DNA of 64,000 bases from an uncultured Planctomycetales bacterium (GTDB lineage: Bacteria; Omnitrophota; Gorgyraeia; Zapsychrales; JANLHA01). Shown here piece by piece: positions 3,794 to 64,000 of this stretch. Made by a program: the position numbers and the translations under genes. Positions within the stretch are counted from its first letter, which is position 1, and each line of letters opens with the position of its first letter. The stretch lies in assembly GCA_964474085.1 (NCBI GenBank), contig CAYYRJ010000009.1, forward strand, positions 13,570 to 77,569, given 5' to 3'. The notes beneath the pieces were generated by a model, which did not search any database, had not been told where the DNA came from, and saw only the letters and a list, made by a program, of their open reading frames with translations.

Positions 3794-3842
3794 AAAACAA
3801 TATCCTTTCTTAACATTCTTACTTTAATAATAATTTTATGGT

Positions 3843-3955
3843 TCGCTATAAGCCCTTCGGCTCAAAGGAACGGTCCCTGGTTGATGTCCCGCCTAACGGC
3901 GGGAGAAAATCAGGGCTGCGTTCAATTCGCCTTTAGGCTTATAGCAAACCAAGCA
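3843..3955. repeat. Family-4 structured repeat, copy a
   Basis: Conserved core cgaattgaacgcagccc.gattttctcccgccgttaggcggga..atc.acc.gggaccgttc..ttgagcc, shared with 63901-64000 in reverse complement. Closing stem gctataagcc/ggcttatagc is unique to this copy. Confidence 0.75.
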
Positions 3956-3972
3956 CCCCCAGATCACATCCA

Positions 3973-12823: not shown

Positions 12824-12842
12824 GTCCCGTCCTATATTATCA

Positions 12843-12923
12843 GCCGATGCAGTCGTCCTTTTAAGGCGAATAGCGCCATAGAGGCGCCAAGCAATTGAGC
12901 CGAAAAAGGACGATTGCGTCGGC
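12843..12923. repeat. Family-2 structured repeat, copy a
   Basis: Core ttttaaggcgaatagcgccatagaggcgccaagcaattgagccgaaaaa enclosed by a roughly 21-bp stem gccgatgcagtcgtccttttt / aaaaaggacgattgcgtcggc with two G-T mismatches. Confidence 0.8.
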
Positions 12924-12936
12924 TAAACAATCATCT

Positions 12937-13060
12937 AGAGCGGCCCTTTGGGCCCTACGGTTTTGCGTAGGCCAAGCAGAAGCTTGGCTAATGCAAAATC
13001 CGGGTTGATTCTAACCTAAACGACAGGGGCTTTCAAGCTGATTAACCCGGATTTTGCATT
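12937..13060. repeat. Partial family-1 copy (3' module) with its own closing inverted repeat
   Basis: gcggccctttgggc...ggccaagcagaagcttggctaatgcaaaatccgggtt matches the 3' third of family 1. It is followed by aacccggattttgcatta, the exact complement of taatgcaaaatccgggtt. Confidence 0.7.
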
Positions 13061-15461: not shown

Positions 15462-15690
15462 ATAAGGTTTAAAAAAAGACCCGTATTTTAACCCGGCTTT
15501 TGCATTAGCCTCGCTCCAACGAGGCCAAGCAAAAGCCGCCCAAAGGGCCGCATGTCTCGACACCGTCGAGACGTGCGGGGTTAACCTTGTCCCTGCGGGA
15601 CAACCAAAGGCAAATTTTGCATTTCCATTTTTGTGCGCGACGGATCGTCGCGCACAAGGTTGTAATGCAAAATTTGGGTTTAAGAGCGAG
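15462..15690. repeat. Family-1 structured repeat, copy B (inverted relative to copy A)
   Basis: Its reverse complement aligns to 163-360 at about 89%. Substitutions in the nested stem are compensatory: cggCttttgc/gcaaaaGccg versus cggAttttgc/gcaaaaTccg, and gcctcg/cgaggc versus gccaagc/gcttggc. Confidence 0.8.
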
Positions 15691-22629: not shown

Positions 22630-22729
22630 TTCTCCTGAACTTGCCGCTTTGGGCATCCCTTTTTCGGCTCAATTGTTTGGCGCCTCTATGGCGCAATTCG
22701 CCTTAAAAGGGCTGCCCAAATCAGCAAGC
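22630..22729. repeat. Family-2 structured repeat, copy b (reverse orientation)
   Basis: Core ggctcaattgtttggcgcctctatggcgcaattcgcctt inside a stem cttgccgctttgggcatccctttt / aaaagggctgcccaaatcagcaag with 3 mismatches. Confidence 0.8.
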
Positions 22730-31831: not shown

Positions 31832-31940
31832 GTGCAAATTTTATTTACTGACTTGAGAAGTCCTTTTAAGGCGAATGGCGCCATAGAGGCGCAAAACAAT
31901 TGAGCCTAAAAGGACTTCCCAAGTCGGCTTAACTTGCACA
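31831..31940. repeat. Family-2 structured repeat, copy c
   Basis: Core ttttaaggcgaatggcgccatagaggcgcaaaacaattgagcctaaaa inside stem gacttgagaagtcctttt / aaaaggacttcccaagtc, extended by tgtgcaa...ttgcaca. Spans from the hflX ATG (31831) to the miaA stop. Confidence 0.8.
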
Positions 31941-33758: not shown

Positions 33759-34901
33759 CTACTTTCCCTTAAGCCCGCTGGCAAGATCGTCAATCAGGTC
33801 TTTATAGTCTTCGATGCCGACTGAGACGCGAATCGTTTCACGCGTAATCCCCGAAGCTTTAAGCCCAGCCTCGCCCATCGAGGAGTGGCTCATCGACCAG
33901 GGATGTTCGATCAAAGACTCGACCCCGCCTAACGATTCGGCGAGAGAAAAAATTTTTAATTTCTTAAAAAACTTGTTGAGCTCAACTTTCTTCGTGTCCA
34001 GCTCAAAGGCGAGCATGCCACCAAAACCTTTCATCTGTTTGCGAATCAAGTCTTGCTGAGGATGGCTGATCAAACCAGGATAATAAACTTTCTTGACATT
34101 TTTGTGGCCTTCCAGGAATTTGGCAATGCTAAGTGCATTGGCCTGATGCGCTTGCATGCGGTAACTGATCGTTTTGACCCCGCGCAAAACCAGCCACGCG
34201 TCAAACGGCGATTCTGCCACACCCAAAGCATTAACCAAATAACGGATCCGCTCCCCAAGCGCCTTATCATTATAAACAATTGCGCCACCAACGACATCGC
34301 TATGGCCGTTAATATATTTTGTCGTCGAGTGCACAATCAAATCCGCGCCAAAATCAAATGGGCGCTGAAAATACGGCGACAAAAAAGTATTATCCACTGC
34401 CGTTAAAATCTTTTTGGACTTCGCAAGTTTAATCACAGCGTCAAGATCAACAATATTAAGCAAAGGATTCGACGGCGTTTCGATCCAGATCATTTTGGTC
34501 TTCGGTAAAATCGCTGACTTCACTTTAGCCAAATCGCGCATATTAACGAAAGAAAACGACAAGCCCATCTGCGGCAACACTTGGTTAAAAAGCCGATAGG
34601 TGCCGCCGTAAATATCGTCCCCCGTCACAATATGATCGCCGGCTTTGCACAGAAACAATGCGGCCGTGATCGCAGCCATCCCCGTTGCCGTCGCCGAACA
34701 ACCGATGCCGCCTTCCAAGCTGGCAATATTCTCTTCAAGCGCGCTGCGGGTGGGGTTGCCGCTTCGAGTATAATCGTAGCCTTTGTTTTTTCCCAAAGCG
34801 TCAAAATAAAAAGTTGAAGTCGGATAAATCGGGGTCGTGACCGAATTATAACTATTATCTTTATAAACGCCTGTATGAACAGATTGTGTGCGTATATCCA
34901 T
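33759..34901 (-). CDS. PLP-dependent transsulfuration enzyme (cystathionine gamma-synthase/lyase, MetB/MetC family)
   Basis: Cys/Met-metabolism PLP fold with the lysine motif HSTTKYINGHSDVVGG. Confidence 0.8.
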   Translation of the reverse strand: MDIRTQSVHTGVYKDNSYNSVTTPIYPTSTFYFDALGKNKGYDYTRSGNPTRSALEENIASLEGGIGCSATATGMAAITAALFLCKAGDHIVTGDDIYGGTYRLFNQVLPQMGLSFSFVNMRDLAKVKSAILPKTKMIWIETPSNPLLNIVDLDAVIKLAKSKKILTAVDNTFLSPYFQRPFDFGADLIVHSTTKYINGHSDVVGGAIVYNDKALGERIRYLVNALGVAESPFDAWLVLRGVKTISYRMQAHQANALSIAKFLEGHKNVKKVYYPGLISHPQQDLIRKQMKGFGGMLAFELDTKKVELNKFFKKLKIFSLAESLGGVESLIEHPWSMSHSSMGEAGLKASGITRETIRVSVGIEDYKDLIDDLASGLKGK

Positions 34902-34980
34902 GGTTTAGGATTCTCCTTGATTATTTTCTAACGCTAAAACTGTTAGACACGATAAACTGCTGACGAGGATTTGTCAATTG

Positions 34981-35114
34981 TGATCTTTTGTCGGTTGTTA
35001 ACAAAGCCTTCGTCGCTCGAACAGTCCTCGCTCTAGTCGCTTACTCTTATTGAAAACTTTAGGTAAGCGCCTAGGCTGCGGAACTCGCTTTGGAAGGCAT
35101 TGTTAACAACCGAC
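34981..35114. repeat. Family-3 long-hairpin repeat, copy a (subfamily 1)
   Basis: Arms ccttcgtcgctcgaacagtcctcgc and ggctgcggaactcgctttggaagg flank an inner stem gtcgcttac/gtaagcgcc. Outer stem tcggttgttaacaa/ttgttaacaaccga is unique to this copy. Confidence 0.8.
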
Positions 35115-35119
35115 CAGAT

Positions 35120-35794
35120 CTATTTATTTGCCACAAAAACAAAACCATTCGCCTTGCCGCTTAAAGGGTCTACTGCCCTAGACGTCATTTTTTCTTTTTC
35201 TTCGGGCAAGCATTCCTCTTCACATTTAGCCACCAATTTCCACGTCGGTTTTGAACGATGATGCACCTTGGCCAGCGGCTCCTGGCCTAAAAAACAGCCC
35301 TTGGCAAAAGAGACAAAATCGGTTTCGCTGACATTAAGAAGCATTTCATCTTTATAATCAACGCCCAAAAGGGCCATATTATTTTTCAGACGAAAACGGG
35401 TAAATTCCTCGTCGCTAACCGAAGCTGGCAAGTCGTCGGCTGTCAAAACAAGCTGACCGCACTTTTGCGCAATGACAAACTCCGTCGGACTTGGGCGATA
35501 CGAGCCTTCCAAATCAAAATAGACAAACAAATTCTCCTGGCTGAGCACTGTCTTGCTTAAACGGGCAAAACGTTCCAAATGCAAAAGAACTGCAGGCAAA
35601 AATGCCTCTTCGATAACCAGCAAAAACTTTTCATCGCTGACGCGGACTTGGTCAAAAGTGGCAATGATACGGCCATGAATATTAACAAAAGCGTTTTGCG
35701 GTTTATCGAGCGAATTTGTCGTTAACCCGTTTAAAAATGCTTGCGGGCAAGGCGCGACACTTAATACTTTTTTTGTTGTTTTATAAAGACGCAT
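35120..35794 (-). CDS. YgfZ/GcvT-like folate-binding Fe-S cluster assembly/repair protein
   Basis: C-terminal KGCFLGQE matches the K-G-C-[FY]-x-G-Q-E signature of the YgfZ (COG0354) family. Confidence 0.6.
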   Translation of the reverse strand: MRLYKTTKKVLSVAPCPQAFLNGLTTNSLDKPQNAFVNIHGRIIATFDQVRVSDEKFLLVIEEAFLPAVLLHLERFARLSKTVLSQENLFVYFDLEGSYRPSPTEFVIAQKCGQLVLTADDLPASVSDEEFTRFRLKNNMALLGVDYKDEMLLNVSETDFVSFAKGCFLGQEPLAKVHHRSKPTWKLVAKCEEECLPEEKEKMTSRAVDPLSGKANGFVFVANK

Positions 35795-36572
35795 TTATTT
35801 GACCACAGGCTTTTAGATAATCGCGAATAATCTGTTTATGGTCAAAAGCAAAGTTGTACTTTAAAATTTTATCCGCGCTGATAATCTGCGCGCCCTTAGC
35901 ATCATCGCCGGATCGCAGCGTGCCTTTTCCCTGTGCCACAAAAACGGTCGCAATCGTCTGAAAGCGCGGATCCCGGCAAGGGTCGGAATAGGTGTGAAAT
36001 TGTTTTAAATTTTTTAACTCTAAATTTGTTTCTTCTTTCGTCTCGCGCACTGCGGCATGTTCAAGCGATTCACCGTTATCGACAAACCCGCCGGGCAAAG
36101 CAAACCCAAACGGCGGATTGGTCCGTTCAATGACAACGAGGCCGCCTTTATAATGGATAATAATGTCCACCGTCGAGTAGGGGCCGCAGCTTAAATCTTC
36201 CTGTACATGGCGAATATACCCATAAACTTGGCTTTCAAATAAAAGCAAAGTCTGTTTGTCTTCAACGGCCAAAACCATTGTCTTGATCGCCCCCGGATAA
36301 GCACGGCAAAAACGCAAAATTTCCTGTGCCAAAATTTTAGCCACTGCGATAGGCGGAAATTCTTCCTTTATCCCTACAGCGGGAAAAACAACTTTTGTTT
36401 TTTTCTCTCTCTTAGCTTTAATAAAAATATTTCGAAACGCCCGGCGCAGCGAAAGCTCCGTTGGCTTTCCTTTTATTAATGTCGAAATAAAAGATGGGTC
36501 TTTTGGAAACTTGAGGGCATCAGCTAAAACAATCTTAAACTCCGTGGCTTTGACTAACACTTTTCTCTCCAA
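35781..36572 (-). CDS. NUDIX hydrolase with an N-terminal domain of unknown function
   Basis: Nudix box GGFVDNGESLEHAAVRETKEETNLEL in the C-terminal half. Confidence 0.7.
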   Translation of the reverse strand: MERKVLVKATEFKIVLADALKFPKDPSFISTLIKGKPTELSLRRAFRNIFIKAKREKKTKVVFPAVGIKEEFPPIAVAKILAQEILRFCRAYPGAIKTMVLAVEDKQTLLLFESQVYGYIRHVQEDLSCGPYSTVDIIIHYKGGLVVIERTNPPFGFALPGGFVDNGESLEHAAVRETKEETNLELKNLKQFHTYSDPCRDPRFQTIATVFVAQGKGTLRSGDDAKGAQIISADKILKYNFAFDHKQIIRDYLKACGQINASL

Positions 36573-37992
36573 TCTCCCGCGCTAAGGCCAACGCCTGCTC
36601 TTTGGTTTTTACTTTTCCTGTCGCTTGCGCTTCTTCGACGGCTTTGAGAATTTTCCCAAACAAAGCCGAAGGTTTAAGCTTTAACTTTTTGATCAAGTCG
36701 TTTCCGTCGATCAAACGGACAAACGGTTTTTCTTTTTTGGCCGCAAAAAAACGACGGATAATTTCCAGACAAATTTTTTGATGATGTTCTTCATCCTCTT
36801 TCGTCGACAAAACTCCGCGCGTCGAACGCTGGTCAGCCATGGACAAAAGCGCAATCGACGCGGCTTCTTCTTTGGTGTCCCTCAAATAACGAAACCACGC
36901 TTTGTCACTGGGATTTTTAAAATTCGACAAGTAGCCCGGACGCAAATGCCAAAGGACCATATCTTCTAAAATGATCCGCTCCTTAGTCGAAAGTTTAAGG
37001 AGCTTGGCAACAGAGCGCACGATACCTTTACCGACATGTTCGTGCCCATGAAAAGACATGCGGTCTTTTTCTTTTTTGCGTGTCGCGGGCTTTCCGATAT
37101 CATGCAAAAGTGCGGCAAGCTTTAGAATTCCCCGTCGAGTACGGGTCCCGGCTAAAGGCTCATTGAGATACTCAATAATTTCCAAATTATTTTTATGTTC
37201 TTCCAAAACCTTTTCTAATTGCACGACGGTTTCCAAAGAATGCGGCCAGACGTCAAGATGATGATACCCACCTTGGGTTATGCCATACATCACAGTGATC
37301 TGCGGAATCACTTTTTTTAAAAGCCCGATCTTATCTAAAAGCGCCAGATTTTCGGCAGCAGAAGGCGATTGCAAAACTTTAAAAAGTTCATCTAAAATCC
37401 GCTCCCGGGCAACTTGACCAAGCAAGTCAGCGTCTTTTTTAATTTGCCCTAAAGTTTTCGTTTCAACATTAAACCCCAACTGCGCACGCAAACTAAACGC
37501 GCGCAAAAGCCGCAAAGGGTCTTCCACAAATATTTTGTTCCCAACCATGCGAATCCGTCGGGCTTTAAGATCTTTGAGAGCTCCGCAAAAATCTCGGACA
37601 ACTTCCGTAAAATTCTCTAAAAGGTCAAGGTCGTTGAGTTTAACGGTTAATGTATTGAGCGTAAAATCGCGGTGCAAAATGTCGGCTTTAAGGGTTGGCG
37701 CACGAAAATCCGCAAAATCATAGGTGGAAATTTTGCCCTGTTGTTTTTTGACAACACGCCCGCAGCCGCGCTCTTTGTCGAGCAGAACAAACGCGCCCTT
37801 GATCTGTTTGGCAAAAGTTTTCGAAAACGAAACCGCATTTTTTGCTAGGGCAAAGTCAAAGTCTTGGCCAGTTTTACCGACGAGCGCATCGCGCAAAAAG
37901 CCGCCGACCAAAAAAAGATCAACATTCTTTTGGCGGGCGAGTTTTTGCAAAATTACCAAATGAGGATATTCGGCCAAAGTTGGCATAGGCAA
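36535..37992 (-). CDS. cca: CCA-adding tRNA nucleotidyltransferase / poly(A) polymerase family with HD domain
   Basis: Pol-beta head LFLVGGFLRDALVGK...DFDFAL and an HD motif HDIGK. Confidence 0.8.
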   Translation of the reverse strand: MPMPTLAEYPHLVILQKLARQKNVDLFLVGGFLRDALVGKTGQDFDFALAKNAVSFSKTFAKQIKGAFVLLDKERGCGRVVKKQQGKISTYDFADFRAPTLKADILHRDFTLNTLTVKLNDLDLLENFTEVVRDFCGALKDLKARRIRMVGNKIFVEDPLRLLRAFSLRAQLGFNVETKTLGQIKKDADLLGQVARERILDELFKVLQSPSAAENLALLDKIGLLKKVIPQITVMYGITQGGYHHLDVWPHSLETVVQLEKVLEEHKNNLEIIEYLNEPLAGTRTRRGILKLAALLHDIGKPATRKKEKDRMSFHGHEHVGKGIVRSVAKLLKLSTKERIILEDMVLWHLRPGYLSNFKNPSDKAWFRYLRDTKEEAASIALLSMADQRSTRGVLSTKEDEEHHQKICLEIIRRFFAAKKEKPFVRLIDGNDLIKKLKLKPSALFGKILKAVEEAQATGKVKTKEQALALAREIGEKSVSQSHGV

Positions 37993-37997
37993 GAAAA

Positions 37998-38408
37998 TTA
38001 TTCGGTAGCGCTAAAAATAGAAGCTTTCTTTAAAACTTCCTCGTCGACAAAAATCGGCGCTTTGGCACGCACGGCAAGGGCAACGCCATCGGAAGGACGG
38101 GCGTCCACGGTTTTTATCTTGCCGTCTTTGTCTTTTAAAAGGATCTTGGCATGAAAAGTGCTGTTAACTAATTTATCAATAACCAGCGAATCAACTTTTG
38201 CGCCCAAACTGTCGATCGACAAAAACAATAGATCATGCGTCATCGGACGGGGCGTTTCGACGTTGGAGAGTTTCATCTTGATGCTGGAGGCCTCCAAAAA
38301 ACCTATGACAATAGGAAATTGCCGCTCGCCGTCTTTTTCCTTAAGGACAATGATCTGGTCCTGTCGTTTTTCATCAATAATAATTTTGCTTAATTCGACT
38401 TGTATCAT
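37998..38408 (-). CDS. Bifunctional nuclease (BFN/DUF151) domain protein
   Basis: RPSDGVALAVRAKAPIFV motif typical of the DUF151 family. 136 aa. Confidence 0.6.
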   Translation of the reverse strand: MIQVELSKIIIDEKRQDQIIVLKEKDGERQFPIVIGFLEASSIKMKLSNVETPRPMTHDLLFLSIDSLGAKVDSLVIDKLVNSTFHAKILLKDKDGKIKTVDARPSDGVALAVRAKAPIFVDEEVLKKASIFSATE

Positions 38409-38412
38409 ATCT

Positions 38413-38895
38413 TTAAACTCCTTTTTTCTTTAAGGAGGATTTTTCACGCTCCAAAATAACCTTAAGTTCATTCATAAACTGATTGACGTCGCGAAACTGC
38501 CGATAGACAGAAGCAAAACGCACATAAGCAACTTCGTCGAGCGAAGCAAGCTTTTCCATAATAATTTCGCCGATGGCCGTCGCGCTGACTTCACGCTCGT
38601 ATTTTTTTTGTATCGTTCTTTCAATCTCAGCTGTGATTTGTTCAATCTTATCGACGCTAATCGGGCGCTTTTCGCAAGCCTTGACCAAACCGGCAATGAT
38701 TTTTGTCCGGTCAAACGCCTGTCTGCGGTTATCGCGTTTGATCACCATCAGCGGCACTTGCTCGATGTATTCGTAGGTCGTAAAACGCTTCTGGCATTTG
38801 AGGCATTCCCGACGCCGGCGGATAGATTTTCCTTCCGCGCACAAACGCGAATCAACGACCTTGGTTTCCTTATAATGACAGGCGGGACATTTCAT
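38413..38895 (-). CDS. nrdR: Transcriptional repressor NrdR
   Basis: N-terminal zinc ribbon MKCPACHYKETKVVDSR...CLKC plus an ATP-cone. Confidence 0.9.
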   Translation of the reverse strand: MKCPACHYKETKVVDSRLCAEGKSIRRRRECLKCQKRFTTYEYIEQVPLMVIKRDNRRQAFDRTKIIAGLVKACEKRPISVDKIEQITAEIERTIQKKYEREVSATAIGEIIMEKLASLDEVAYVRFASVYRQFRDVNQFMNELKVILEREKSSLKKKGV

Positions 38896-38914
38896 TGCTG
38901 TTCTCGTTTCTAAT

Positions 38915-39030
38915 AATGGCGGTTAGGGATGAGCTTCCAAAGCGAGTTCCGCAGCCTAGGCGCTTACCTAAAGCTCTCAATAAGGGTAAGCGACTAGTGC
39001 GAGGACTGTTTGAGCGACGAAGGTCACTCC
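38915..39030. repeat. Family-3 long-hairpin repeat, copy b (subfamily 1, reverse orientation)
   Basis: Core nearly identical to copy a in reverse complement. Unique outer stem aatggcggttagg/cctaaccgccat. Confidence 0.8.
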
Positions 39031-39045
39031 TAACCGCCATCGCAA

Positions 39046-40284
39046 TCATAAATTCGGATACAACACAAATTCCTTGGTCAATTTTAAAACATCTGCCTTA
39101 ACTTGAGCCAGTTTCACTTCATCGCTATGATTGACGATTGCCGCATCAATCAAGTCTGCGACCTGCTGCATTTGTTTTTCTCGCATCCCGCGTGTCGTTA
39201 GGGCGGGTGTGCCGATACGAATTCCGCTGGTCACCATAGGACTGGCTGTATCAAAGGGAATCAAGTTTTTGTTAACCGTAATATTGACCTTATCCAAAAT
39301 TTCAGACGCTTCTTTGCCGGTGACATTTTTAGGACGCAGATCCACCATAAAAAGATGATTATCGGTCCCTCCGGCGACAATTCGAAAACCCAAGCTACCC
39401 AGCGCCAAAGACAAAGCTTTACTATTTTTGATCACCTGGGCCTGATATGTTTTAAACTCCGGCTCAAGCGCTTCCTTAAAAGCCACCGCCTTGGCTGCAA
39501 TAACATGCATCAAGGGCCCGCCTTGAATGCCAGGAAAAATTGCCGAGTCAATGCGTTTGGCAAATTGTTCCCTGCATAGAATCATCCCGCCCCGAGGTCC
39601 GCGCAATGTTTTGTGCGTTGTCGTCGTGACAAACTCGGCATACGGCACAGGATTCGGGTGAAGCCCGGCAGCGACAAGACCGGCGATATGCGCCATGTCC
39701 ACAAAAAGACAAGCGCCGACACTATCACAAATTTCTCTAAACTTCTTAAAATCCAGCGTCCGCGAATACGCGGATGCGCCGGCAATAATCATCTTCGGTT
39801 TGTGTTCCTTGGCCAAAGCGGTCACGTCATTCATATCGATCATTTCCGTCGACGGATTGACTTTGTAAGTGACCACATTATAGGTTCGTCCCGAAAAATT
39901 CATTTTATGCCCATGCGTCAAGTGTCCGCCACAAGCCAAATCCAGCGCTAAGACCGTGTCTCCGGGATTGATAGCAACATTGTACACAGCATTATTGGCT
40001 TGAGAACCGGAATGCGGCTGGACATTGACATGCTCTGCGCCAAAAAGTTTCTTTGCCCGGTCAATGGCCAATTGCTCAACGACGTCAACATGCTCGCAAC
40101 CGCCGTACCAGCGTTTGGAAGGATAGCCTTCCGCATATTTATTGGTCATGACCGACCCTTGCGCTTGCAATACCGCCTGAGAAACAATATTTTCCGACGC
40201 AATTAATTCTAAATTATCCCGCTGACGAGCTAATTCATTTTTAATCGCCTGAAAAACTTCAGGGTCAACATTTTTTAAATCCAT
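39046..40284 (-). CDS. glyA: Serine hydroxymethyltransferase
   Basis: Canonical SHMT sequence. Start reset to ATG at 40282-40284 ([11 protein letters not shown]...) with an AAGAGG RBS. The longer ORF-track start would lie inside repeat 2d. Confidence 0.95.
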
Positions 40285-40307
40285 GCTCTGCCTCTTTCTA
40301 AAATTAT

Positions 40308-40390
40308 TCCGTAAATTACTGATTAAGGAAGTCCTTTTTAGGCTCAATTGTTTCGCGCCTCTATGGCGCTATTCGCCTTAAAAGGACTTC
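40308..40390. repeat. Family-2 structured repeat, copy d (reverse orientation)
   Basis: Core ggctcaattgtttcgcgcctctatggcgctattcgcctt inside a perfect 20-bp stem ctgattaaggaagtccttttt / aaaaggacttccttaatcag. Confidence 0.85.
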
Positions 40391-40434
40391 CTTAATCAGC
40401 TTAAACCTTACCTTATCAATTCATCGTTTTAAAT

Positions 40435-40899
40435 TTATATTTTTTTCCCTAATGACTTTCGTTCAATCGCTTTGATCTGCTTAACACGGCGCAAATGACG
40501 GCCACCTTCAAATTCGGTATTGAGCCACACCTTGATAATGCCCTCAAGCTCGTCGGGATTGACAAACTTTGCGCCTAAAACCAAAACATTAGCATTATTA
40601 TGCGCACGCGAAAGCACGGCAGCTTCTTTCGTATAACAAAGCGCCGCATAAGACCCAACGACTTTATTGGCTGCAATCGAATGCCCAATACCCGTCATGC
40701 ACGCCAAAATTCCGCGACTGCCCTTTGTCTTTGCCACATTCATAGCTACTTTGCAAGAGATCGGCGGATAATCACAGATCTCACCGACCTCATAAGAACC
40801 TACATCGACAATCGTGTGCCCCAGCGTTTTCAAATAAGAAATGATCCGCTCTTTAAGGTCAAACCCGCGATGATCCGCGCCGATAAAAATTTTCATCAA
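40435..40899 (-). CDS. rpiB: Ribose-5-phosphate isomerase B
   Basis: MKIFIGADHRGFDLK..., active-site C (GICD), 154 aa, LacAB/RpiB fold. Confidence 0.85.
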   Translation of the reverse strand: MMKIFIGADHRGFDLKERIISYLKTLGHTIVDVGSYEVGEICDYPPISCKVAMNVAKTKGSRGILACMTGIGHSIAANKVVGSYAALCYTKEAAVLSRAHNNANVLVLGAKFVNPDELEGIIKVWLNTEFEGGRHLRRVKQIKAIERKSLGKKI

Positions 40900-40905
40900 T
40901 TTTTC

Positions 40906-41988
40906 CTATAGTAATTTTACAAGTTTAGCGACAGCGCTTTTGATCATCACCGCGCACTCTTCATACGTCTCAAAAGATTTTCCCATCGGGTCGGGAATAT
41001 CCAAATCCCCGTCGTAACCGGGCCTCTCCTGCAAAAATTCGCGCAGCTGATACACTCTTTTTTCAACCGCCGGCACGCGCTCTAAAACTTGCTGGCGATG
41101 ACTGCGGGTCATAACCAAAATCAAGTCCGACTTGCGAAGCAAAATACTGCCAATCGGTTGCGACTGATGTTTGGAAGCATCAATCCCTTCTTTGCGCAAA
41201 ACGTTTAACGTTTCCGTGCTCGCCGAGGTATGAAAATAAACAGCTGTTCCGGCAGAAACAACTTCAACATCGTCTTTGCCTTTTAACATATCTTTGAGCA
41301 AATATTCGGCCATCACTGACCGGCAGCTATTACCCGTACAAACAAAAAGAACACGTTTTTTTTGCGTAATCCGGTCGACATCCTCTTGTGTAATCGGACC
41401 CTGCCGCAAAACAACCGGCGCCTCTTTTGTAAAATCCACAACCGATGAAGCCAGACCAAATTTGGCTTCACCTCCATCGATAGCCAAATCAACTAACCCG
41501 TCAAGATCCTTAAGCGCCGCCTCACACGTCGAAGGCGGCGGGTTGCCAGCAAAATTAGCCGATGGAGCTGCAACCGTACATTGCGATTCTTCAACAAGAC
41601 TTAAAGCGATTTTATTCTGAGGAATACGAACGCCAATCGTGCGTCCCTCTTCAAACGAGGGGACAACAACCGTCAAAGGGCCCGGCCAGCACTCATCAAT
41701 CAACTTATAAACTTCCGGCGACTTAATCGGCGTATAGTTGGGCAATAGACTTTTTTGAGAAATATGGATCGAAAACGGCTTGTCCCCGTCACGGCGCTTG
41801 ACGTCCCGCAAGCGGGCCATTGCTTTAGGGTTATTAAAATCCGCGGCAATCCCATACACCGTTTCCGTCGGAAAAACAACCAACCCGCCCTGACGGATGA
41901 CTCCCGCACAATGAGCGATGCGGTCTGTTTCAGGTGTTTCGGGATTGATTTTTATAATTTGCGTTTTCACAATTTTTATCAAGATCAT
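40906..41988 (-). CDS. Fusion protein: L-threonylcarbamoyladenylate synthase (TsaC/Sua5/YwlC domain) + low-molecular-weight protein phosphatase (YwlE-like)
   Basis: N-terminal GGLVVFPTETVYGIAAD (YrdC fold). C-terminal LFVCTGNSCRSVMAEY is the CX5R(S/T) LMW-PTP P-loop. Start taken as ATG at 41986-41988, because the longer ORF start lies inside repeat 3c. Confidence 0.7.
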   Translation of the reverse strand: MILIKIVKTQIIKINPETPETDRIAHCAGVIRQGGLVVFPTETVYGIAADFNNPKAMARLRDVKRRDGDKPFSIHISQKSLLPNYTPIKSPEVYKLIDECWPGPLTVVVPSFEEGRTIGVRIPQNKIALSLVEESQCTVAAPSANFAGNPPPSTCEAALKDLDGLVDLAIDGGEAKFGLASSVVDFTKEAPVVLRQGPITQEDVDRITQKKRVLFVCTGNSCRSVMAEYLLKDMLKGKDDVEVVSAGTAVYFHTSASTETLNVLRKEGIDASKHQSQPIGSILLRKSDLILVMTRSHRQQVLERVPAVEKRVYQLREFLQERPGYDGDLDIPDPMGKSFETYEECAVMIKSAVAKLVKLL

Positions 41989-41995
41989 CTTTAAC

Positions 41996-42123
41996 GAGGC
42001 TATTGCGGTAACCTTCGTCGCTCGAACAGTCCTCGCGCACACCGCTTACTCTAAATTTAAAAGACAAACAGGTAAGCGGCGTGGCTGCGGAACTCGCTTG
42101 GGAAGGTCACCGCAACAGCCTCG
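41996..42123. repeat. Family-3 long-hairpin repeat, copy c (subfamily 2)
   Basis: Same conserved arms. Inner stem is cacaccgcttac/gtaagcggcgtg. Unique outer stem gaggctattgcggtaacc/ggtcaccgcaacagcctc. Confidence 0.8.
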
Positions 42124-42138
42124 CAATTAAAAATTCCC

Positions 42139-42612
42139 TTAATTCTCCAAAACCCGCTTGCGCTGATCGTCGGAAAAGTCCTCAAGCTTTTTGGCTAGCC
42201 CTTGATCAGCCAAAGCCAAAATCCGTATCGCCAAAAGCGCCGCATTCTTAGCCCCGTTTTTTCCGATGGCAACAGCGCCGACCGGCACTCCGGGAGGCAT
42301 TTGCACCGTCGAAAGAAGTGAATCCAAACCATTTAAAACAGATTCAATCGGAACACCTAAAACCGGCAGGTTCGTATGCGCCGCGACAACGCCAGCCAAG
42401 GCCGCTGCACCGCCGGCACCGCAAATAATAACCTGTATCCCTTTTGACTTTGCGTTTTCGGCATATGCGGCTGTCTCACGCGGAGTCCGATGCGCAGACA
42501 AAACCTTGATTTCATAGCCGACTCCAAAATCTTTCAAAATCTTAGCCGCCTCTTCCATCGTCGGAAGATCTGACTTGCTGCCCATCATGAGTGCAACCTG
42601 AATTTTTTGCAT
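42139..42612 (-). CDS. purE: N5-carboxyaminoimidazole ribonucleotide mutase
   Basis: Start reset to ATG at 42610-42612 with an AAGGAGG RBS ([16 protein letters not shown]...). Confidence 0.9.
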
Positions 42613-42625
42613 CTGATATCCTCCT

Positions 42626-43945
42626 TTACCGGCCGATTGCATCTGCGGATCTTAACGAATCTCTTTTTACCGCTTTGGCGGCAATATCTCGGCGGAAAAA
42701 CATGTGGTCAAACTTTATTTTTTCAACGGCTATATAAACTTTTTTGATCGCTTCCTTAATATTAGTGCCTAAACTAACAACGCCCAAAACCCGCCCCCCT
42801 GCTGTAACAATCTTATCCCCATCTTTTTTGGTCCCAGCGTGAAAAACAAAAGTATCTTTTTCTTCTGTCGCTGCGGGCAAACCTTTAATCTCGTAACCTG
42901 TTTGATATTTCCCAGGATAACCGCCAGAGCTCATCACAACGCAAACACAAGGACGCTTGTCCCATGCAAGTTCAATTTCATTGAGTCGACCTTCGCAGCT
43001 GGCAAGAATCAGTTCGATAAGATCGTTTTTTAGGCGCGGCAAAACCGCCTGCGTTTCCGGATCGCCAAAACGGACATTGTACTCCAAAACCTGCGGCCCC
43101 TGCGAGGTTATCATAAGTCCCGCGTAAAGGACCCCGCGAAACGGCATGCCCTCACGGGCCATCCCGCGCACCGTCGGCTCAATGACGCGCGCTTCAATTT
43201 TTCGCAAAAGCGTGTCAGTCACAACCGGTGCCGGACAGTAGGCGCCCATGCCGCCGGTGTTAGGCCCCAAATCATCGTCAAAAATTCTTTTATGATCTTG
43301 CGCAGATTCCAAAATCAGATAATCTTCGCCGTCACAAATCGCCAGAATTGAAACCTCTTCGCCCACCAAAAAGTCTTCAATAACAATCTTTGTCCCCGCC
43401 TGTGCAAAAATTTTATCTTTCATCATCTGTTCAACGGCGACCAACGCCTCCTGCAAAGTATTACAAATGACAACGCCTTTCCCAGCGGCCAACCCGTCGG
43501 CTTTAACAACGAGCGGAAATTGCGCGTGATTTAAAAACGCGCAAGCATCTTCAATACGATCAAAATTCATAAATGTTGCCGTCGGGATATTGCAGCGGAG
43601 CATAAATTCTTTAGAAAAAGTCTTGCTGCCCTCCAGCTGTGCGGCCATCTGGCTTGGGCCAAAAATCTTGAGTTTCGCTTTTTCGAACTGATCGACAATC
43701 CCCGCCGTCAAAGGCGCTTCAGGGCCCACCACCGTCAAATCAATCTTTTCTTTTTTTGCAAATTTTAAAAGACCGGCGATATCATCGCTGTTAATGTCAA
43801 CGCACAAAGCGCAGGATGCGATCCCCGCATTGCCCGGAGCACAATACAACTTTTCAAGCCGCGGACTCTGAGCAAGCTTCCAAGCTAAAGCATGCTCGCG
43901 AGCACCAGAACCGATGAGCAGAACTTTTAATTTTTTTTCCATCAT
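42626..43945 (-). CDS. purD: Phosphoribosylamine--glycine ligase
   Basis: ATP-grasp fold. N-terminus [17 protein letters not shown]. Confidence 0.9.
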
Positions 43946-44943
43946 ACAAACCGTATTTTTTGTGAAGGATCTTTAACGACTTGGCCGATTTCGAAATTTT
44001 CAACGCCCTGTTTTTTTAATAGAGCGCGTATTTTTGCTGCATTTTTTGCCGGCACAACTAAAACCATTCCGACACCCATGTTAAATGTACGAAACATTTC
44101 CACCTCAGCAACACGGCCTTTTTCCTGGATTTTTTTAAATATCGCCGGAACCGGCCAACTGCCGCGGACAATTTGAAAACATTTTCCCTGCGGTAAAATC
44201 TTCGTCATCTTTTCATAAAACGCACCCCCGGTCACATGCGCAATCCCATGAACCGTGTGTTTAGCCAAAACAGCCAAAACTGGCTTAACATAAATTCTCG
44301 TCGGCACAAGCAGCTCTTTAGCTAAAACTTTTTGTTCTTCAGCCGAAAAAACTTTGCGCGCCAGGCTAAAGCCGTTAGAATGCAAACCGCTGGACGCCAA
44401 ACCAATCACAACATCCCCAATCCGAATCTTAGAACCGTCAATAATATTTTTCTTTTCAACAACCCCGACGGTAAAACCAGCTAAGTCGTACTCATCTTGC
44501 CTGTAAAGCCCGGGCATTTCCGCTGTCTCGCCGCCCACCAAAGCACAGCCAGCCTGCCGACAACCTTCGGTAATTCCTTTCACGACTTCGATTAAAAGCT
44601 TAGGATGCACCTTGCCGCAAGCAATATAATCCAAAAAGAAAAGCGGTTTAGCGCCGACACAAAGCACATCATTGACATTCATGGCAACAAGGTCAATGCC
44701 AACCGTGTCGTGGATATTGGCACTTTTAGCGATCAGAAGTTTTGTCCCCACACCATCCGTCGAGGAAACCAGAACGGGATTTTTATATTTGCCGCCTAAC
44801 TCAAAAAGTCCGCCAAAAGACCCTTTGCGCGACAAAGCCCCCTTAACCATTGTCGACTTGACCAAAGCGCCAATGCCATCGACGAAACGATTTGCTTCGT
44901 CGATATCCACACCGCTGTCTTTATACGTTAATCCGTTTTTCAT
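43942..44943 (-). CDS. purM: Phosphoribosylformylglycinamidine cyclo-ligase (AIR synthetase)
   Basis: YKDSGVDIDEAN N-terminus and the PurM fold. Confidence 0.9.
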   Translation of the reverse strand: MKNGLTYKDSGVDIDEANRFVDGIGALVKSTMVKGALSRKGSFGGLFELGGKYKNPVLVSSTDGVGTKLLIAKSANIHDTVGIDLVAMNVNDVLCVGAKPLFFLDYIACGKVHPKLLIEVVKGITEGCRQAGCALVGGETAEMPGLYRQDEYDLAGFTVGVVEKKNIIDGSKIRIGDVVIGLASSGLHSNGFSLARKVFSAEEQKVLAKELLVPTRIYVKPVLAVLAKHTVHGIAHVTGGAFYEKMTKILPQGKCFQIVRGSWPVPAIFKKIQEKGRVAEVEMFRTFNMGVGMVLVVPAKNAAKIRALLKKQGVENFEIGQVVKDPSQKIRFV

Positions 44944-44952
44944 ATTAATTTC

Positions 44953-45084
44953 GAGTGGTTGTTAAAGTATCCTTCCTAAGCGAGTTCCGCAGCCACGCCG
45001 CTTACCTGTATGCCTTTAAAATTCAGAGCAAGTGGCGTGCGCGAGGACTGTTTGAGCTAAGGAAGGATGCTTTAACAGCCACTC
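44953..45084. repeat. Family-3 long-hairpin repeat, copy d (subfamily 2, reverse orientation)
   Basis: Conserved arms in reverse complement. Unique outer stem gtggttgttaaagtatccttcc/ggaaggatgctttaacagccac, about 22 bp with two T/C differences. Confidence 0.8.
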
Positions 45085-45093
45085 ATAAACATT

Positions 45094-45996
45094 CTAAATC
45101 AAATTCTTCTTTATATACTCTACCCCGTTTTCAAAAATCTTAGCCCCTTGGCCAAACTTTTCGCGCGACGCCAATCGCGTCCACGACGGATGTTGAAGCG
45201 AAAGAAAATGTCTTTCCGGATGCGGCATCAGCCCCAAAATCCGTCCTGTCGCATCCGTAATCCCGGCGATATTATCAATCGCACCATTGGGATTCGCAGG
45301 ATAAACCGGAGTATCCCCATTTTCATCACAATAGCGAAAAATAACTTGCCCGCTGTCTTTTAAACGACTCAAAACATTTTCATCTAAAGCAACAAATTTC
45401 CCCTCCGCATGCGCCACCGGTAAATAGATCACTTCATTTAAGCCTTGCGTCCAAACACAATGTCCGTCGGGCTTTAAGTAAATCCAACGGTCTTCAAATT
45501 TTCCGGAATCATTATGCGTCAGCGTTACAGTTTGCGAAAAGACTATCTGCTCGACAGCGGGTGACGCGAAGGGGAGTTCCCTTGCCTTTCCGAAAGAATT
45601 AAGGAAGGCAGGATCCCGCAACGGCAGCGCAAGTCCCGCAACGCGGGGGACCCGCTGAAAAAACGTCCCAGGCAAAATTCCTGCTCGCACCAAAACCTGA
45701 AACCCATTGCAAATCCCGATAATAAGTTTTCCGTCGGCAATAAAACGCTTTATTTCTTCTCCCAGACGCAGACGAAGTTCATTGGCCAAAATGCGTCCCG
45801 AGATAATATCATCCCCATAACTAAACCCGCCGGCAAGCGCGAGGATCTGATAATTCTCTAATTTCTTTTCACCGCTGACAAGCCGATTAATGTGGACTCG
45901 CTCAACGTGAGCACCAGAACTTTCAAAAGCGAAAGCTGTCTCCACATCGCAATTGGTTCCTGCGGTACGCAAAACTAGGACTTTGGGGTGAACCAT
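45094..45996 (-). CDS. purQ: FGAM synthase glutamine amidotransferase subunit (PurQ-like, long form)
   Basis: Class-I GATase with GICNGFQ catalytic Cys. 300 aa, which is longer than typical PurQ. Confidence 0.8.
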   Translation of the reverse strand: MVHPKVLVLRTAGTNCDVETAFAFESSGAHVERVHINRLVSGEKKLENYQILALAGGFSYGDDIISGRILANELRLRLGEEIKRFIADGKLIIGICNGFQVLVRAGILPGTFFQRVPRVAGLALPLRDPAFLNSFGKARELPFASPAVEQIVFSQTVTLTHNDSGKFEDRWIYLKPDGHCVWTQGLNEVIYLPVAHAEGKFVALDENVLSRLKDSGQVIFRYCDENGDTPVYPANPNGAIDNIAGITDATGRILGLMPHPERHFLSLQHPSWTRLASREKFGQGAKIFENGVEYIKKNLI

Positions 45997-63883: not shown

Positions 63884-63900
63884 GTCTTCTTGAGAATTTA

Positions 63901-64000
63901 GGGTAAGTCCGAACGGCGAATTGAACGCAGCCCCGATTTTCTCCCGCCGTTAGGCGGGAATCTACCGGGGACCGTTCATTGAGCCGGCAGGACTTGCCCT
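63901..64000. repeat. Family-4 structured repeat, copy b (reverse orientation relative to copy a; reaches the window edge)
   Basis: Core matches the reverse complement of 3843-3955. Closing stem gggtaagtcc/ggacttgccc. The internal stem ccccg/cgggg replaces ccctg/caggg of copy a, a compensatory change. Confidence 0.75.

Follow-up and report, generated by a model that had tools for sequence, protein, structure and literature searches.

Four gene spacers in the DNA analyzed here (a stretch of 64,000 nt from an uncultured member of the Omnitrophota, referred to below as the window) are occupied by related long hairpins. The initial annotation interpreted them as a protein-binding or catalytic RNA motif, in which a conserved internal loop is held between variable helices. 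The question raised by this locus is whether the hairpins act as RNA or whether they are DNA elements that behave independently of the transcripts in which they lie.

Long hairpins c1–c4

The four hairpins, originally given as approx. 125 nt long, proved to be real: each spans about 127 nt, with an asymmetric, conserved core flanked by variable stems. With a covariance model derived from homologues found elsewhere, they scored 92–108 bits, and no fifth full copy was detected in the window. Folding of either strand yielded long hairpins with z of about −4.5 to −10.

Copy c1 (34989..35115, + strand; 94.2 bits with model R1; fold z = −7.4/−8.6) has its 5′ core at 35015..35031 (GCTCGAACAGTCCTCGC) and its 3′ core at 35074..35088 (GGCTGCGGAACTCGC), both on the + strand, and lies antisense in the spacer between an unknown 224-aa gene (stop at 35120) and a gene encoding a Cys/Met PLP enzyme (start at 34901). 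Copy c2 (38915..39041, − strand; 92 bits), whose cores are located on the − strand at 38999..39015 (5′; GCTCAAACAGTCCTCGC) and 38942..38956 (3′; GGCTGCGGAACTCGC), separates the stop of glyA (SHMT; 39046) from the start of nrdR (38895) and is sense to both genes. Copy c3 (41995..42123, + strand; 97.3 bits) is placed between the purE stop (42139) and a gene for a Sua5-LMWPc fusion protein, antisense to the genes, with cores matching the arms at 42020..42036 (5′, +) and 42083..42097 (3′, +). Copy c4 (44954..45083, − strand; 108.5 bits; fold z = −6.6/−10.1) occupies, in the sense orientation, the purQ/purM spacer (purQ stop at 45094, purM start at 44943); its 5′ core is found at 45041..45057 (−; GCTCAAACAGTCCTCGC) and its 3′ core, again an arm match, at 44980..44994 (−). 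PurQ itself carries an insert of a different family.

These gene neighborhoods agree with those originally assigned, and the copies indeed alternate in orientation (+, −, +, −) and fall into two subfamilies (c1/c2, 94% alike; c3/c4, 85% alike). The 3′ arm GGCTGCGGAACTCGCTTNGGAAGG was matched in all four copies, at 35074–35097 (+), 38933–38956 (−, one mismatch), 42083–42106 (+) and 44971–44994 (−). The 5′ arm CCTTCGTCGCTCRAACAGTCCTCGC, thought to be common to all of them, was matched at 35007–35031 (+), 38999–39023 (−) and 42012–42036 (+); in c4 only the inner part GCTCAAACAGTCCTCGC is intact, the outer part having diverged (CCTTCCTTAGCTC...). No arm matches were obtained in 100 shuffled sequences. 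The outer stems are not completely different, as had been claimed, since they can be weakly aligned (GGYTRTT...), as expected of diverged homologues. None of the four copies (4/4) is followed 3′ by a T-run, which rules out an intrinsic terminator. Several other hairpin families of the window have the junction GC TCAA.../...TTC GC(C) in common.

Conserved core and covarying stems

The element is an imperfect palindrome of approx. 125 bp (up to approx. 215 bp in one lineage) with the conserved core GC TCARACAG TCC-T-CGC ... GGC(T)G-C-GGA ACT(C) GC. Its parts are (i) an outer stem, P1, of 27–30 bp and of any sequence, (ii) an asymmetric junction, 5′-GC TCARACAG / ACT(C) GC-3′, (iii) a short irregular helix, P2 (TCC-T-CGC / GC(T)G-C-GGA), and (iv) a variable terminal hairpin, P3. 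The arms had been described as one large internal loop. A conserved asymmetric loop between covarying helices is indeed present, but it is not a single large one: the arms form GC/GC, followed by an 8-nt/4-nt asymmetric loop and an irregular helix of 6 bp, which contains a T·C mismatch and a bulged T. This helix is supported by compensatory double changes in two copies outside the pattern selection (C-G to T-A and C-G to G-C). The same two changes contradict an alternative pairing, CAGTC/GGCTG, proposed by RNAalifold on a MAFFT alignment, a procedure that missed the stems because their register varies. A single circularly permuted copy was found in L186.

The motif had been made dependent on stem-preserving covariation in a larger alignment, and such covariation is present. 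Of the 28 outer-stem pairs, 26 were changed on both sides in the set of 109 copies, and all four Watson-Crick pair types occurred at nearly every position. The outer helix reached a covariation score of 0.685; shuffles gave 0.153 and slid partners no more than 0.145. The Watson-Crick fraction was 0.80 when the two sides were taken from the same copy and 0.30 when they were taken from different copies. After insertion the stems drift, with the two arms remaining complementary.

Stem mismatches show strand symmetry, with G·T (3.7%) about as rare as A·C (4.6%); in an RNA helix, only G·U should be tolerated. Relative to flanking co-directional genes, 19 copies were in the sense and 14 in the antisense orientation. 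An apparent strand preference in fold energy (the complement was favoured in 70 of 98 copies) was discarded, because it is the fixed core that drives the fold energy; a count restricted to the stems was symmetric.

Distribution and probable mobility

The wider search for the core that the initial annotation had called for was performed with one pattern, in which 21 core bases were fixed. It revealed more than 115 loci in at least nine phyla: Omnitrophota, Planctomycetota, Actinomycetota (Coriobacteriia), Myxococcota, Bdellovibrionota, Gemmatimonadota, Dormibacteraeota, Latescibacteria and Eisenbacteria. Approx. 94–98 of the 118–121 matches (about 100 confirmed copies) possess a long, copy-specific outer stem, and the same copies conserve bases left free by the pattern (5′ GC, TC and A; 3′ T, C and GC). 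Occurrence across phyla is patchy, and genomes differ in the number of copies that they carry; decayed copies (41–64 bits) also occur, as expected of selfish DNA.

A young subfamily from freshwater metagenomes consists of near-identical copies, outer stems included, located in at least 30 flank contexts, and the whole hairpin with its outer stem moves as one unit. The termini of this subfamily are defined, (T)GCGGCCGTCGC...GCGACGGCCGC(A). No direct repeat was present at the ends of approx. 34 young copies, whose flanks merely extend the palindrome by 1–4 nt. Terminal inverted repeats are constant within the young subfamily, but not across lineages or among c1–c4. Like classical MITEs, the elements are small, non-coding, multi-copy and polymorphic in presence.

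Comparison of orthologous sites revealed gain or loss of copies between close relatives. Copy c2 is absent from L044 (approx. 91% identical), in which glyA and nrdR overlap as ATGA; in the window, a block of 147 nt (approx. 38899–39045) is inserted with ATGA on both sides. This is the only clean empty site, and its 4-bp ATGA repeat could, but need not, represent a target duplication. It shows no similarity between arms and flanks, contrary to an inverted target duplication in which the outer stem is copied from the host flanks, and that model was rejected. The c3 ortholog is present in L044. L115 carries a single arm of a c2-like copy, along with another, different copy in the opposite orientation. 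One copy distinguishes L073 from L064, and at each of two sites within hypF some relatives have a copy that others lack. These presence/absence cases are explained by hairpin-stimulated slippage, with loss of the copy, no less well than by insertion.

The interior of the element flips between the inverted arms, so that both orientations occur. Orthologous copies of c1 were identified in L115, L077 and L103, with the core flipped in two of the three, and L026 and L031 likewise differ by a flipped core at an orthologous site. The c1 site is occupied even in genomes only approx. 72% identical, among loci ascertained through an intact core; host selection, rather than selfish turnover, could be behind this occupancy.

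Insertion between and within genes

The typical site of the element, both in the window and in other low-GC genomes, is inside an operon, approx. 4–20 nt past the stop of the preceding gene. The majority of copies lie between genes, and in low-GC genomes they include stop codons. In-frame copies were found at two sites (A and B) of HypF, with the YrdC-like domain split at Pfam position 85/86, and also at the carA-carB junction, where the genes are fused through the hairpin. Such hairpins add 40–45 residues to proteins such as HypF. The peptide of the HypF insert, used as query in a protein search, yielded no candidates, too few words being in common. At hypF site B, the peptide AHGDSLA bears an ambiguous resemblance to EHGTPADSLA. 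Recurrent peptides (LRQSSP..AAELA or RVPQP..RGLSE) are encoded by the in-frame copies because the conserved DNA core is translated in stop-free frames, and preservation of the reading frame in the hypF copies suggests that they are simply translated.

These insertions also have consequences for annotation: the hairpins lengthen proteins (HypF), fuse neighboring genes (carA-carB), separate the translationally coupled glyA and nrdR, and give rise to spurious ORFs in MAGs of high GC content.

Partner genes, vehicles and catalogued relatives

Approx. 1.4 Mb of fetched loci (8–14 kb each) contained neither a transposase nor a recurrent partner gene near the copies; no RAYT, TnpA or IntI gene was seen in them, nor an insertion sequence that shares the ends of the element and could be its parent. 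When ORFs near the copies were clustered, first for the genome loci and then for those from metagenomes, nothing but housekeeping genes and spurious ORFs that traverse the repeat emerged. We saw no extended form in which the arms enclose a gene; single arms were rare and resembled truncations. Viral contigs and plasmids yielded no copies; the absence of the element from these obvious cross-phylum vehicles counts against its being mobile.

Rfam gave no match at the gathering score for the whole window and, for c1, only noise up to an E-value of 10. A full-text literature search with the core sequences returned primer coincidences and nothing relevant, and the repeat is apparently uncatalogued. 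When the core was compared by eye with other consensus sequences (IHF sites, LexA boxes, the hammerhead, hairpin and twister ribozyme cores, SRP RNA and RNase P RNA), no convincing match emerged.

Nature of the element

The hairpins behave like selfish mobile DNA and unlike a strand-specific RNA. In our opinion they probably represent a non-autonomous palindromic mobile DNA element, whose core would be a putative enzyme recognition module on folded DNA. Only the junction and P2 would be constrained in sequence, as the parts read by a trans-acting enzyme on single-stranded or cruciform DNA, and P1 and P3 would be needed merely as helices. Any effect of so stable an intercistronic hairpin on the host mRNA would be a by-product. 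Since no transposase or partner gene lies near the copies in the approx. 1.4 Mb of loci, the enzyme is one that we purely infer; the lack of an apparent target duplication in the young subfamily would point to a peel-and-paste enzyme of the HUH/Y1 type. Enzymes of this type are used by IS200/IS605 and RAYT systems. To our knowledge, the identity of a 30-nt core across phyla exceeds by far that of any described MITE or REP family, and this observation counts against a mobile element.

The RNA interpretation of the initial annotation was not supported by these comparisons. Its more plausible form assumes an intercistronic mRNA structure that benefits the host, such as a 3′-end protector or a phage T7-like processing site for RNase III/RNase E, the internal loop being bound by a conserved RNA-binding protein or nuclease. 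Such a role would fit the position of the copies in operons shortly after the upstream stop codon, the high stability of helices that are not terminators, and the long-lasting occupancy of the c1 site. Yet about half of the copies are antisense (19:14) and cores are flipped at orthologous sites, although the core is conserved and non-palindromic; moreover, G·U pairs are no commoner than A·C, copies are inserted in frame within coding sequences, Rfam contains no match, and c2 is dispensable in a close relative whose genes overlap directly. We consider this role quite unlikely. A self-cleaving or otherwise catalytic RNA, suggested by comparison with the hairpin ribozyme, has next to no probability. 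The conserved internal loop between variable helices does agree with it, and the permuted copy in L186 recalls the permuted types of small ribozymes, but the random orientation and strand-symmetric mismatches speak against catalysis, as do the lack of any Rfam family even at an E-value of 10 and the in-frame hypF copies, whose preserved frame suggests plain translation.

Orientation-independence and strand symmetry, together with a conserved core, free stems and a junction shared by several hairpin families of the window, are also what a domesticated DNA site would display, i.e. one in which the core, as duplex or extruded cruciform, binds a conserved host protein involved in nucleoid organization, replication, repair or recombination, and in which the elements persist through host use. 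E. coli BIMEs, for example, bind gyrase, IHF and Pol I. The patchy occurrence across phyla, the variable copy number and the polymorphic, decayed and in-frame copies are, however, marks of selfish spread, and no candidate protein was found; this makes a domesticated site unlikely. It is very improbable that the hairpins are remnants, i.e. degraded ends of insertion sequences or fragments of coding sequences, an origin that the initial annotation had considered damaging to its motif and of which we found no sign. The young subfamily does have defined termini and the in-frame copies do encode recurrent peptides, but the latter are mere translations of the core in stop-free frames, most copies are intergenic, with stops in low-GC genomes, and gene-bearing longer versions were not seen, the rare lone arms being truncation-like.

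If an enzyme does read the junction on folded DNA, the mobile element that we favour would belong to a widespread system of transposition or recombination that is not known to have been sought, and would provide a ready substrate with which to fish out this enzyme, e.g. from the cultured Bdellovibrio bacteriovorus YOA24. A broader view, which we regard as possible but doubtful, is that there exists a pan-bacterial class of structure-guided mobile hairpins, with free termini and a constrained internal junction, handled as folded ssDNA by a widely shared enzyme or by the host replication/repair machinery. The single circularly permuted copy would then hint at a circular intermediate. The GC TCAA.../...TC GC hairpin families of this genome would then form one superfamily served by the same machinery.

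Comparison with known palindromic elements

REPIN/REP elements, mobilized by RAYT (Y1 HUH), resemble those described here in several respects: they are hairpin palindromes of approx. 100 nt, multi-copy, intergenic, lacking obvious target duplication, as does our young subfamily, present in either orientation, and evolving in a population-like manner with compensatory changes. In REPs, however, conservation falls on the palindrome, together with a 5′ tetranucleotide, and is lineage-specific, whereas our elements have free termini and conserve only an internal asymmetric junction, which is the same in at least nine phyla; the conserved palindrome with its tetranucleotide, arranged in inverted doublets, was not found in them.

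Recognition of a folded single strand through bulges, mismatches and asymmetric loops, as proposed here, has parallels in the ends of IS200/IS605 elements, in their derivatives, the palindrome-associated elements (PATEs), and in the attC sites of integrons. IS200/IS605 elements generate no target duplication, but they have unlike hairpins at their left and right ends instead of one long palindrome. The attC sites carry RYYYAAC/GTTRRRY boxes at the base of the stem, which are lacking here: 87 aligned copies had no conserved sequence in this position, and the neighbors were housekeeping genes.

ERIC/IRU and the Correia elements of Neisseria, which are MITE-like and intergenic, are also imperfect palindromes of approx. 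125 bp that form long hairpins and are co-transcribed within operons in either orientation. They have conserved terminal inverted repeats, generate TA target duplications, and each family is confined to one bacterial group, in contrast to the elements described here, whose termini vary by lineage and whose young subfamily shows no visible target duplication. The small palindromic repeat families known to us are each limited to one lineage and defined by conserved ends; what is unusual in the present case is the combination of free ends with an internal junction of approx. 30 nt that is the same in phyla ranging from Omnitrophota to Actinomycetota and Myxococcota.

The Rickettsia palindromic elements are inserted in frame into unrelated protein-coding genes and also occur between genes (PMC10969869). 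Our elements are comparable to these by description: both are palindromes of approx. 100–150 bp and both enter reading frames, in our case at the two sites of HypF and between carA and carB. The Rickettsia elements have been described only from this genus and its close relatives, whereas those analyzed here are mostly intergenic and present in many phyla. In-frame insertion of palindromes, known from Rickettsia, is thereby extended to many more phyla.

Four hairpins with conserved arms in the window

Both of the conserved arms described in the initial annotation were located exactly at the positions reported there; 100 shuffled versions of the window gave no match. Reading and folding of the regions confirmed four hairpins, each of approx. 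127 nt, at 34989–35115 (c1, plus strand), 38915–39041 (c2, minus strand), 41995–42123 (c3, plus strand) and 44954–45083 (c4, minus strand). These copies folded far more stably than shuffled controls, with z values of −4.5 to −10 on either strand. The proposed division into two subfamilies also held, c1 and c2 being 94% and c3 and c4 85% alike over 90–101 nt.

The neighboring genes, all encoded on the minus strand, are those named previously: a Cys/Met PLP enzyme and an unknown protein of 224 aa (c1), SHMT and NrdR (c2), PurE and a Sua5-LMWPc fusion (c3), and PurQ and PurM (c4). Each of the four copies starts 4–15 nt downstream of the stop codon of the preceding gene. No T-run was found downstream of any of them (4/4), and they are therefore not terminators. 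Promoter-like hexamers, which are probably native promoters, are present on the minus strand just beyond the left ends of c1 (TTGACA-17-TATCGT, 34949–34977) and c3 (TTGATA-17-AATTAT, 41954–41982), in both cases upstream of the next gene.

Anatomy and covariation of the element

The structure of the element was drawn from 87 aligned and 109 model-aligned copies. An outer stem (P1) of 27–30 bp, which may have any sequence, is closed at the 3′ end by P1′ and leads to an asymmetric junction (GC|TCARACAG on the 5′ side and ACT(C)|GC on the 3′ side), i.e. a loop of 8 nt against 4 nt closed by two G-C pairs. Next to the junction lies P2, an irregular 6-bp helix with a bulged T and a T·C mismatch (TCC-T-CGC on the 5′ side, GGC(T)G-C-GGA on the 3′ side), followed by a variable terminal hairpin (P3), which accounts for the 30–60 nt (up to 90 nt in metagenomes) between the core blocks.

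The predicted arrangement of an asymmetric internal loop between covarying helices was borne out, since 26 of 28 P1 pairs were changed on both sides, and GC, CG, AU and UA pairs were all used at nearly every P1 position. The covariation score of P1 was 0.685, compared with 0.153 for shuffles and at most 0.145 for slid partners, and its arms were Watson-Crick complementary at 80% of positions within one copy vs 30% between different copies. P2 is invariant by construction in the pattern-selected copies; its pairing is supported by compensatory double changes in two copies detected only with the model, C-G to T-A in L032 (6450–6586) and C-G to G-C in L003 (710–841), which also argue against the alternative pairing suggested by RNAalifold.

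Distribution across bacteria

One genome per species was scanned with a pattern that fixes 21 core bases (CAGTCCTCGC, 30–60 nt, GGCTGCGGAAC), and at least 115 loci were obtained. About 94–98 of 118–121 matches are true copies, with a long outer stem that is different in each of them and with common bases outside the fixed positions (GC-TC-RR-A preceding the 5′ block, T-(C)-GC following the 3′ block); the remainder are chance matches inside genes. The hosts among the matches listed, assigned by record title, belong to the Omnitrophota, Planctomycetota, Coriobacteriia and other Actinomycetota, Polyangia/Enhygromyxa, Bdellovibrionota (including the cultured B. bacteriovorus YOA24), Gemmatimonadota, Dormibacteraeota, Latescibacteria and Eisenbacteria. 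The Omnitrophota MAG SZ_szas25bin.37 is close to the window (approx. 91% identity). The host loci span GC contents of 0.40 to 0.72, and the variable parts of the element track the host composition, while the core is unchanged. No copies were found in viral contigs or plasmids.

In the Coriobacteriia, other Actinomycetota and MAGs labelled Eubacteriales, the element is inserted in frame at two sites of hypF: after GPRLYLN (present in loci L003, L008, L032 and L084, absent from L062 and L049), and within the YrdC-like domain, where the Pfam model is split at 85/86 (present in L003, L032, L062 and L049, absent from L008). Another locus (L023) carries a copy in frame between carA and carB. The frames in use within genes contain no stops and correspond to LRQSSP..AAELA or, in the reverse orientation, RVPQP..RGLSE. 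From the preserved reading frame we infer that the in-gene copies are translated, as are the palindromic elements of Rickettsia (PMC10969869).

The PurQ ORF of the window (45094–45996, minus strand) contains an in-frame insert of approx. 37 residues (45545–45660) that splits Pfam GATase_5 at 109/110. At the DNA level, the insert is a decayed palindrome (CAGCGGGT...ACCCGCTG) of yet another family and includes GGGAACTCCCCTTCGCG, so the window genome also has a palindromic element translated within a housekeeping gene.

Evidence for mobility of the element

Several loci differ by the presence of a copy. In L044, which is otherwise collinear with the window (about 91–95% identity), c2 is absent: the glyA stop and nrdR start overlap there as ATGA, and the window has 147 nt between two copies of ATGA. 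In L115, this spacer contains a single arm of a c2-like copy and, after it, a different full copy that is oppositely oriented. In one Polyangia MAG, two contigs differ by one copy.

A metagenome scan for longer interiors revealed a young freshwater subfamily (L117–L223, e.g. L127, 5054–5143), a palindrome of approx. 215 nt with the termini (T)GCGGCCGTCGC...GCGACGGCCGC(A). Its copies are near-identical, including the outer stems, in at least 30 different flank contexts, which indicates that the hairpin spreads as a whole. Where outer stems differ, between lineages and among c1–c4, they have thus diverged after insertion with their complementarity preserved. Some copies have decayed. Lone arms are seldom found and resemble truncations. 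No direct repeat was visible at the ends of the young copies.

The junction motif is repeated in the interior of this subfamily (GC|TCAGAAAC ... TTTCC|TC|GC). In many copies, part of the left terminus is present as a direct repeat approx. 57 nt upstream, and other short repeats, e.g. CGCTCGTCCGGAGCGACCGAGCGGTTCC, recur downstream. A circularly permuted element was found at L186, 1945–2045 (outer stem, CTGCGGAACTC, the closed hairpin GGCCAAG-ATTA-CTTGGCC, TCAAACAGTCCTCGC, outer stem); this order is represented by one copy in data ascertained entirely for the standard order. Convergent pairs (plus then minus) 50–100 nt apart occur in L060 of a Polyangia MAG, as well as in L034, L073 and L088. 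Two such pairs in L060 (2351–2672 and 4952–5252) are mutually inverted and flank 2.3 kb including a hybrid histidine kinase gene.

Other hairpin families in the window

Besides the element, the window contains three or more hairpin families, two of which have its junction (GC|TCAA.../...TTC|GC(C)). Family F2 (approx. 87 nt; 12840–12926 and 31844–31931, minus strand; 22641–22727 and 40316–40402, plus strand) has a conserved interior, TCCTTTTTAGGCTCAATTGTTTSGCGCCTCTATGGCGCTATTCGCCTTAAAAGGA, variable outer stems and the junction GC|TCAA.../...TTC|GCC, as in the element. A covariance model built from element homologues elsewhere gave weak, orientation-dependent matches to it (E 0.003–0.03). The copy at 40316 appears to be missing from L044, since the 133 nt of the window around it (40308–40441) stand opposite only approx. 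43 nt. Family F4 (3834–3956, plus strand; about 63900–63990, minus strand) has arms that resemble those of the element (GGCTCAAAGGAACGGTCCCTG ... CAGGGCTGCGTTCAATTCGCC) and enclose the hairpin TCCCGCC-TAAC-GGCGGGA; it is probably a sister family within one superfamily. A further repeat family consists of two inverted copies of 157 nt, 92% complementary and 15 kb apart (165–321 and 15527–15683), and a partial third copy (12961–13006).

DNA or RNA, and what moves the element

The main alternatives to a mobile element are an intercistronic RNA hairpin beneficial to the host and a domesticated DNA site for a host protein. Host selection could be argued from the c1 site, which is occupied in genomes only approx. 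72% identical, but this comparison is biased because the loci were ascertained through an intact core. As to the first alternative, five results point to DNA rather than RNA: the mixed orientation, the flipped cores, the symmetric mismatches, the lack of any match to Rfam families and the absence of T-runs from c1–c4. Of 37 copies at low-GC loci, where genes are easily called, 33 are located between co-directional genes, 19 of these in sense and 14 in antisense orientation, and the element adjoins the upstream stop codon in either case. At the orthologous c1 site, the core has one orientation in the window and L115 and the opposite one in L077 and L103, with unchanged flanks; L026 and L031 likewise differ at an orthologous site. 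Such flips could arise by recombination or template switching between the two P1 arms. The non-Watson-Crick positions of P1 are strand-symmetric (G·T 3.7%, A·C 4.6%), as expected of recent transitions in palindromic DNA; an RNA helix would tolerate only G·U.

Clustering of ORFs near approx. 100 genome and approx. 70 metagenome copies revealed no partner gene, only housekeeping genes and spurious ORFs spanning the repeat. Recognition of a folded strand through its imperfections, combined with no apparent target duplication (as in the young subfamily), is the mode of action of IS200/IS605 TnpA, RAYTs and integron integrases. On this ground, an enzyme of the HUH/Y1 type is proposed, which might act on the hairpin or cruciform form.

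Comparison with known repeats

The element works like REPINs, RPE, ERIC and Correia elements and the palindrome-associated elements derived from IS200/IS605. It lacks the defining features of those families for which such features were testable. Its termini differ between lineages, although they are shared within the young freshwater subfamily, the loci analyzed contained no parent IS, and no Rfam family matches. The core is not a palindrome of the REP type, nor is it an attC-type box. A full-text literature search by sequence returned nothing relevant. The unusual feature of the element is that the sequence constraint falls on an internal asymmetric junction, which is identical in at least nine phyla.
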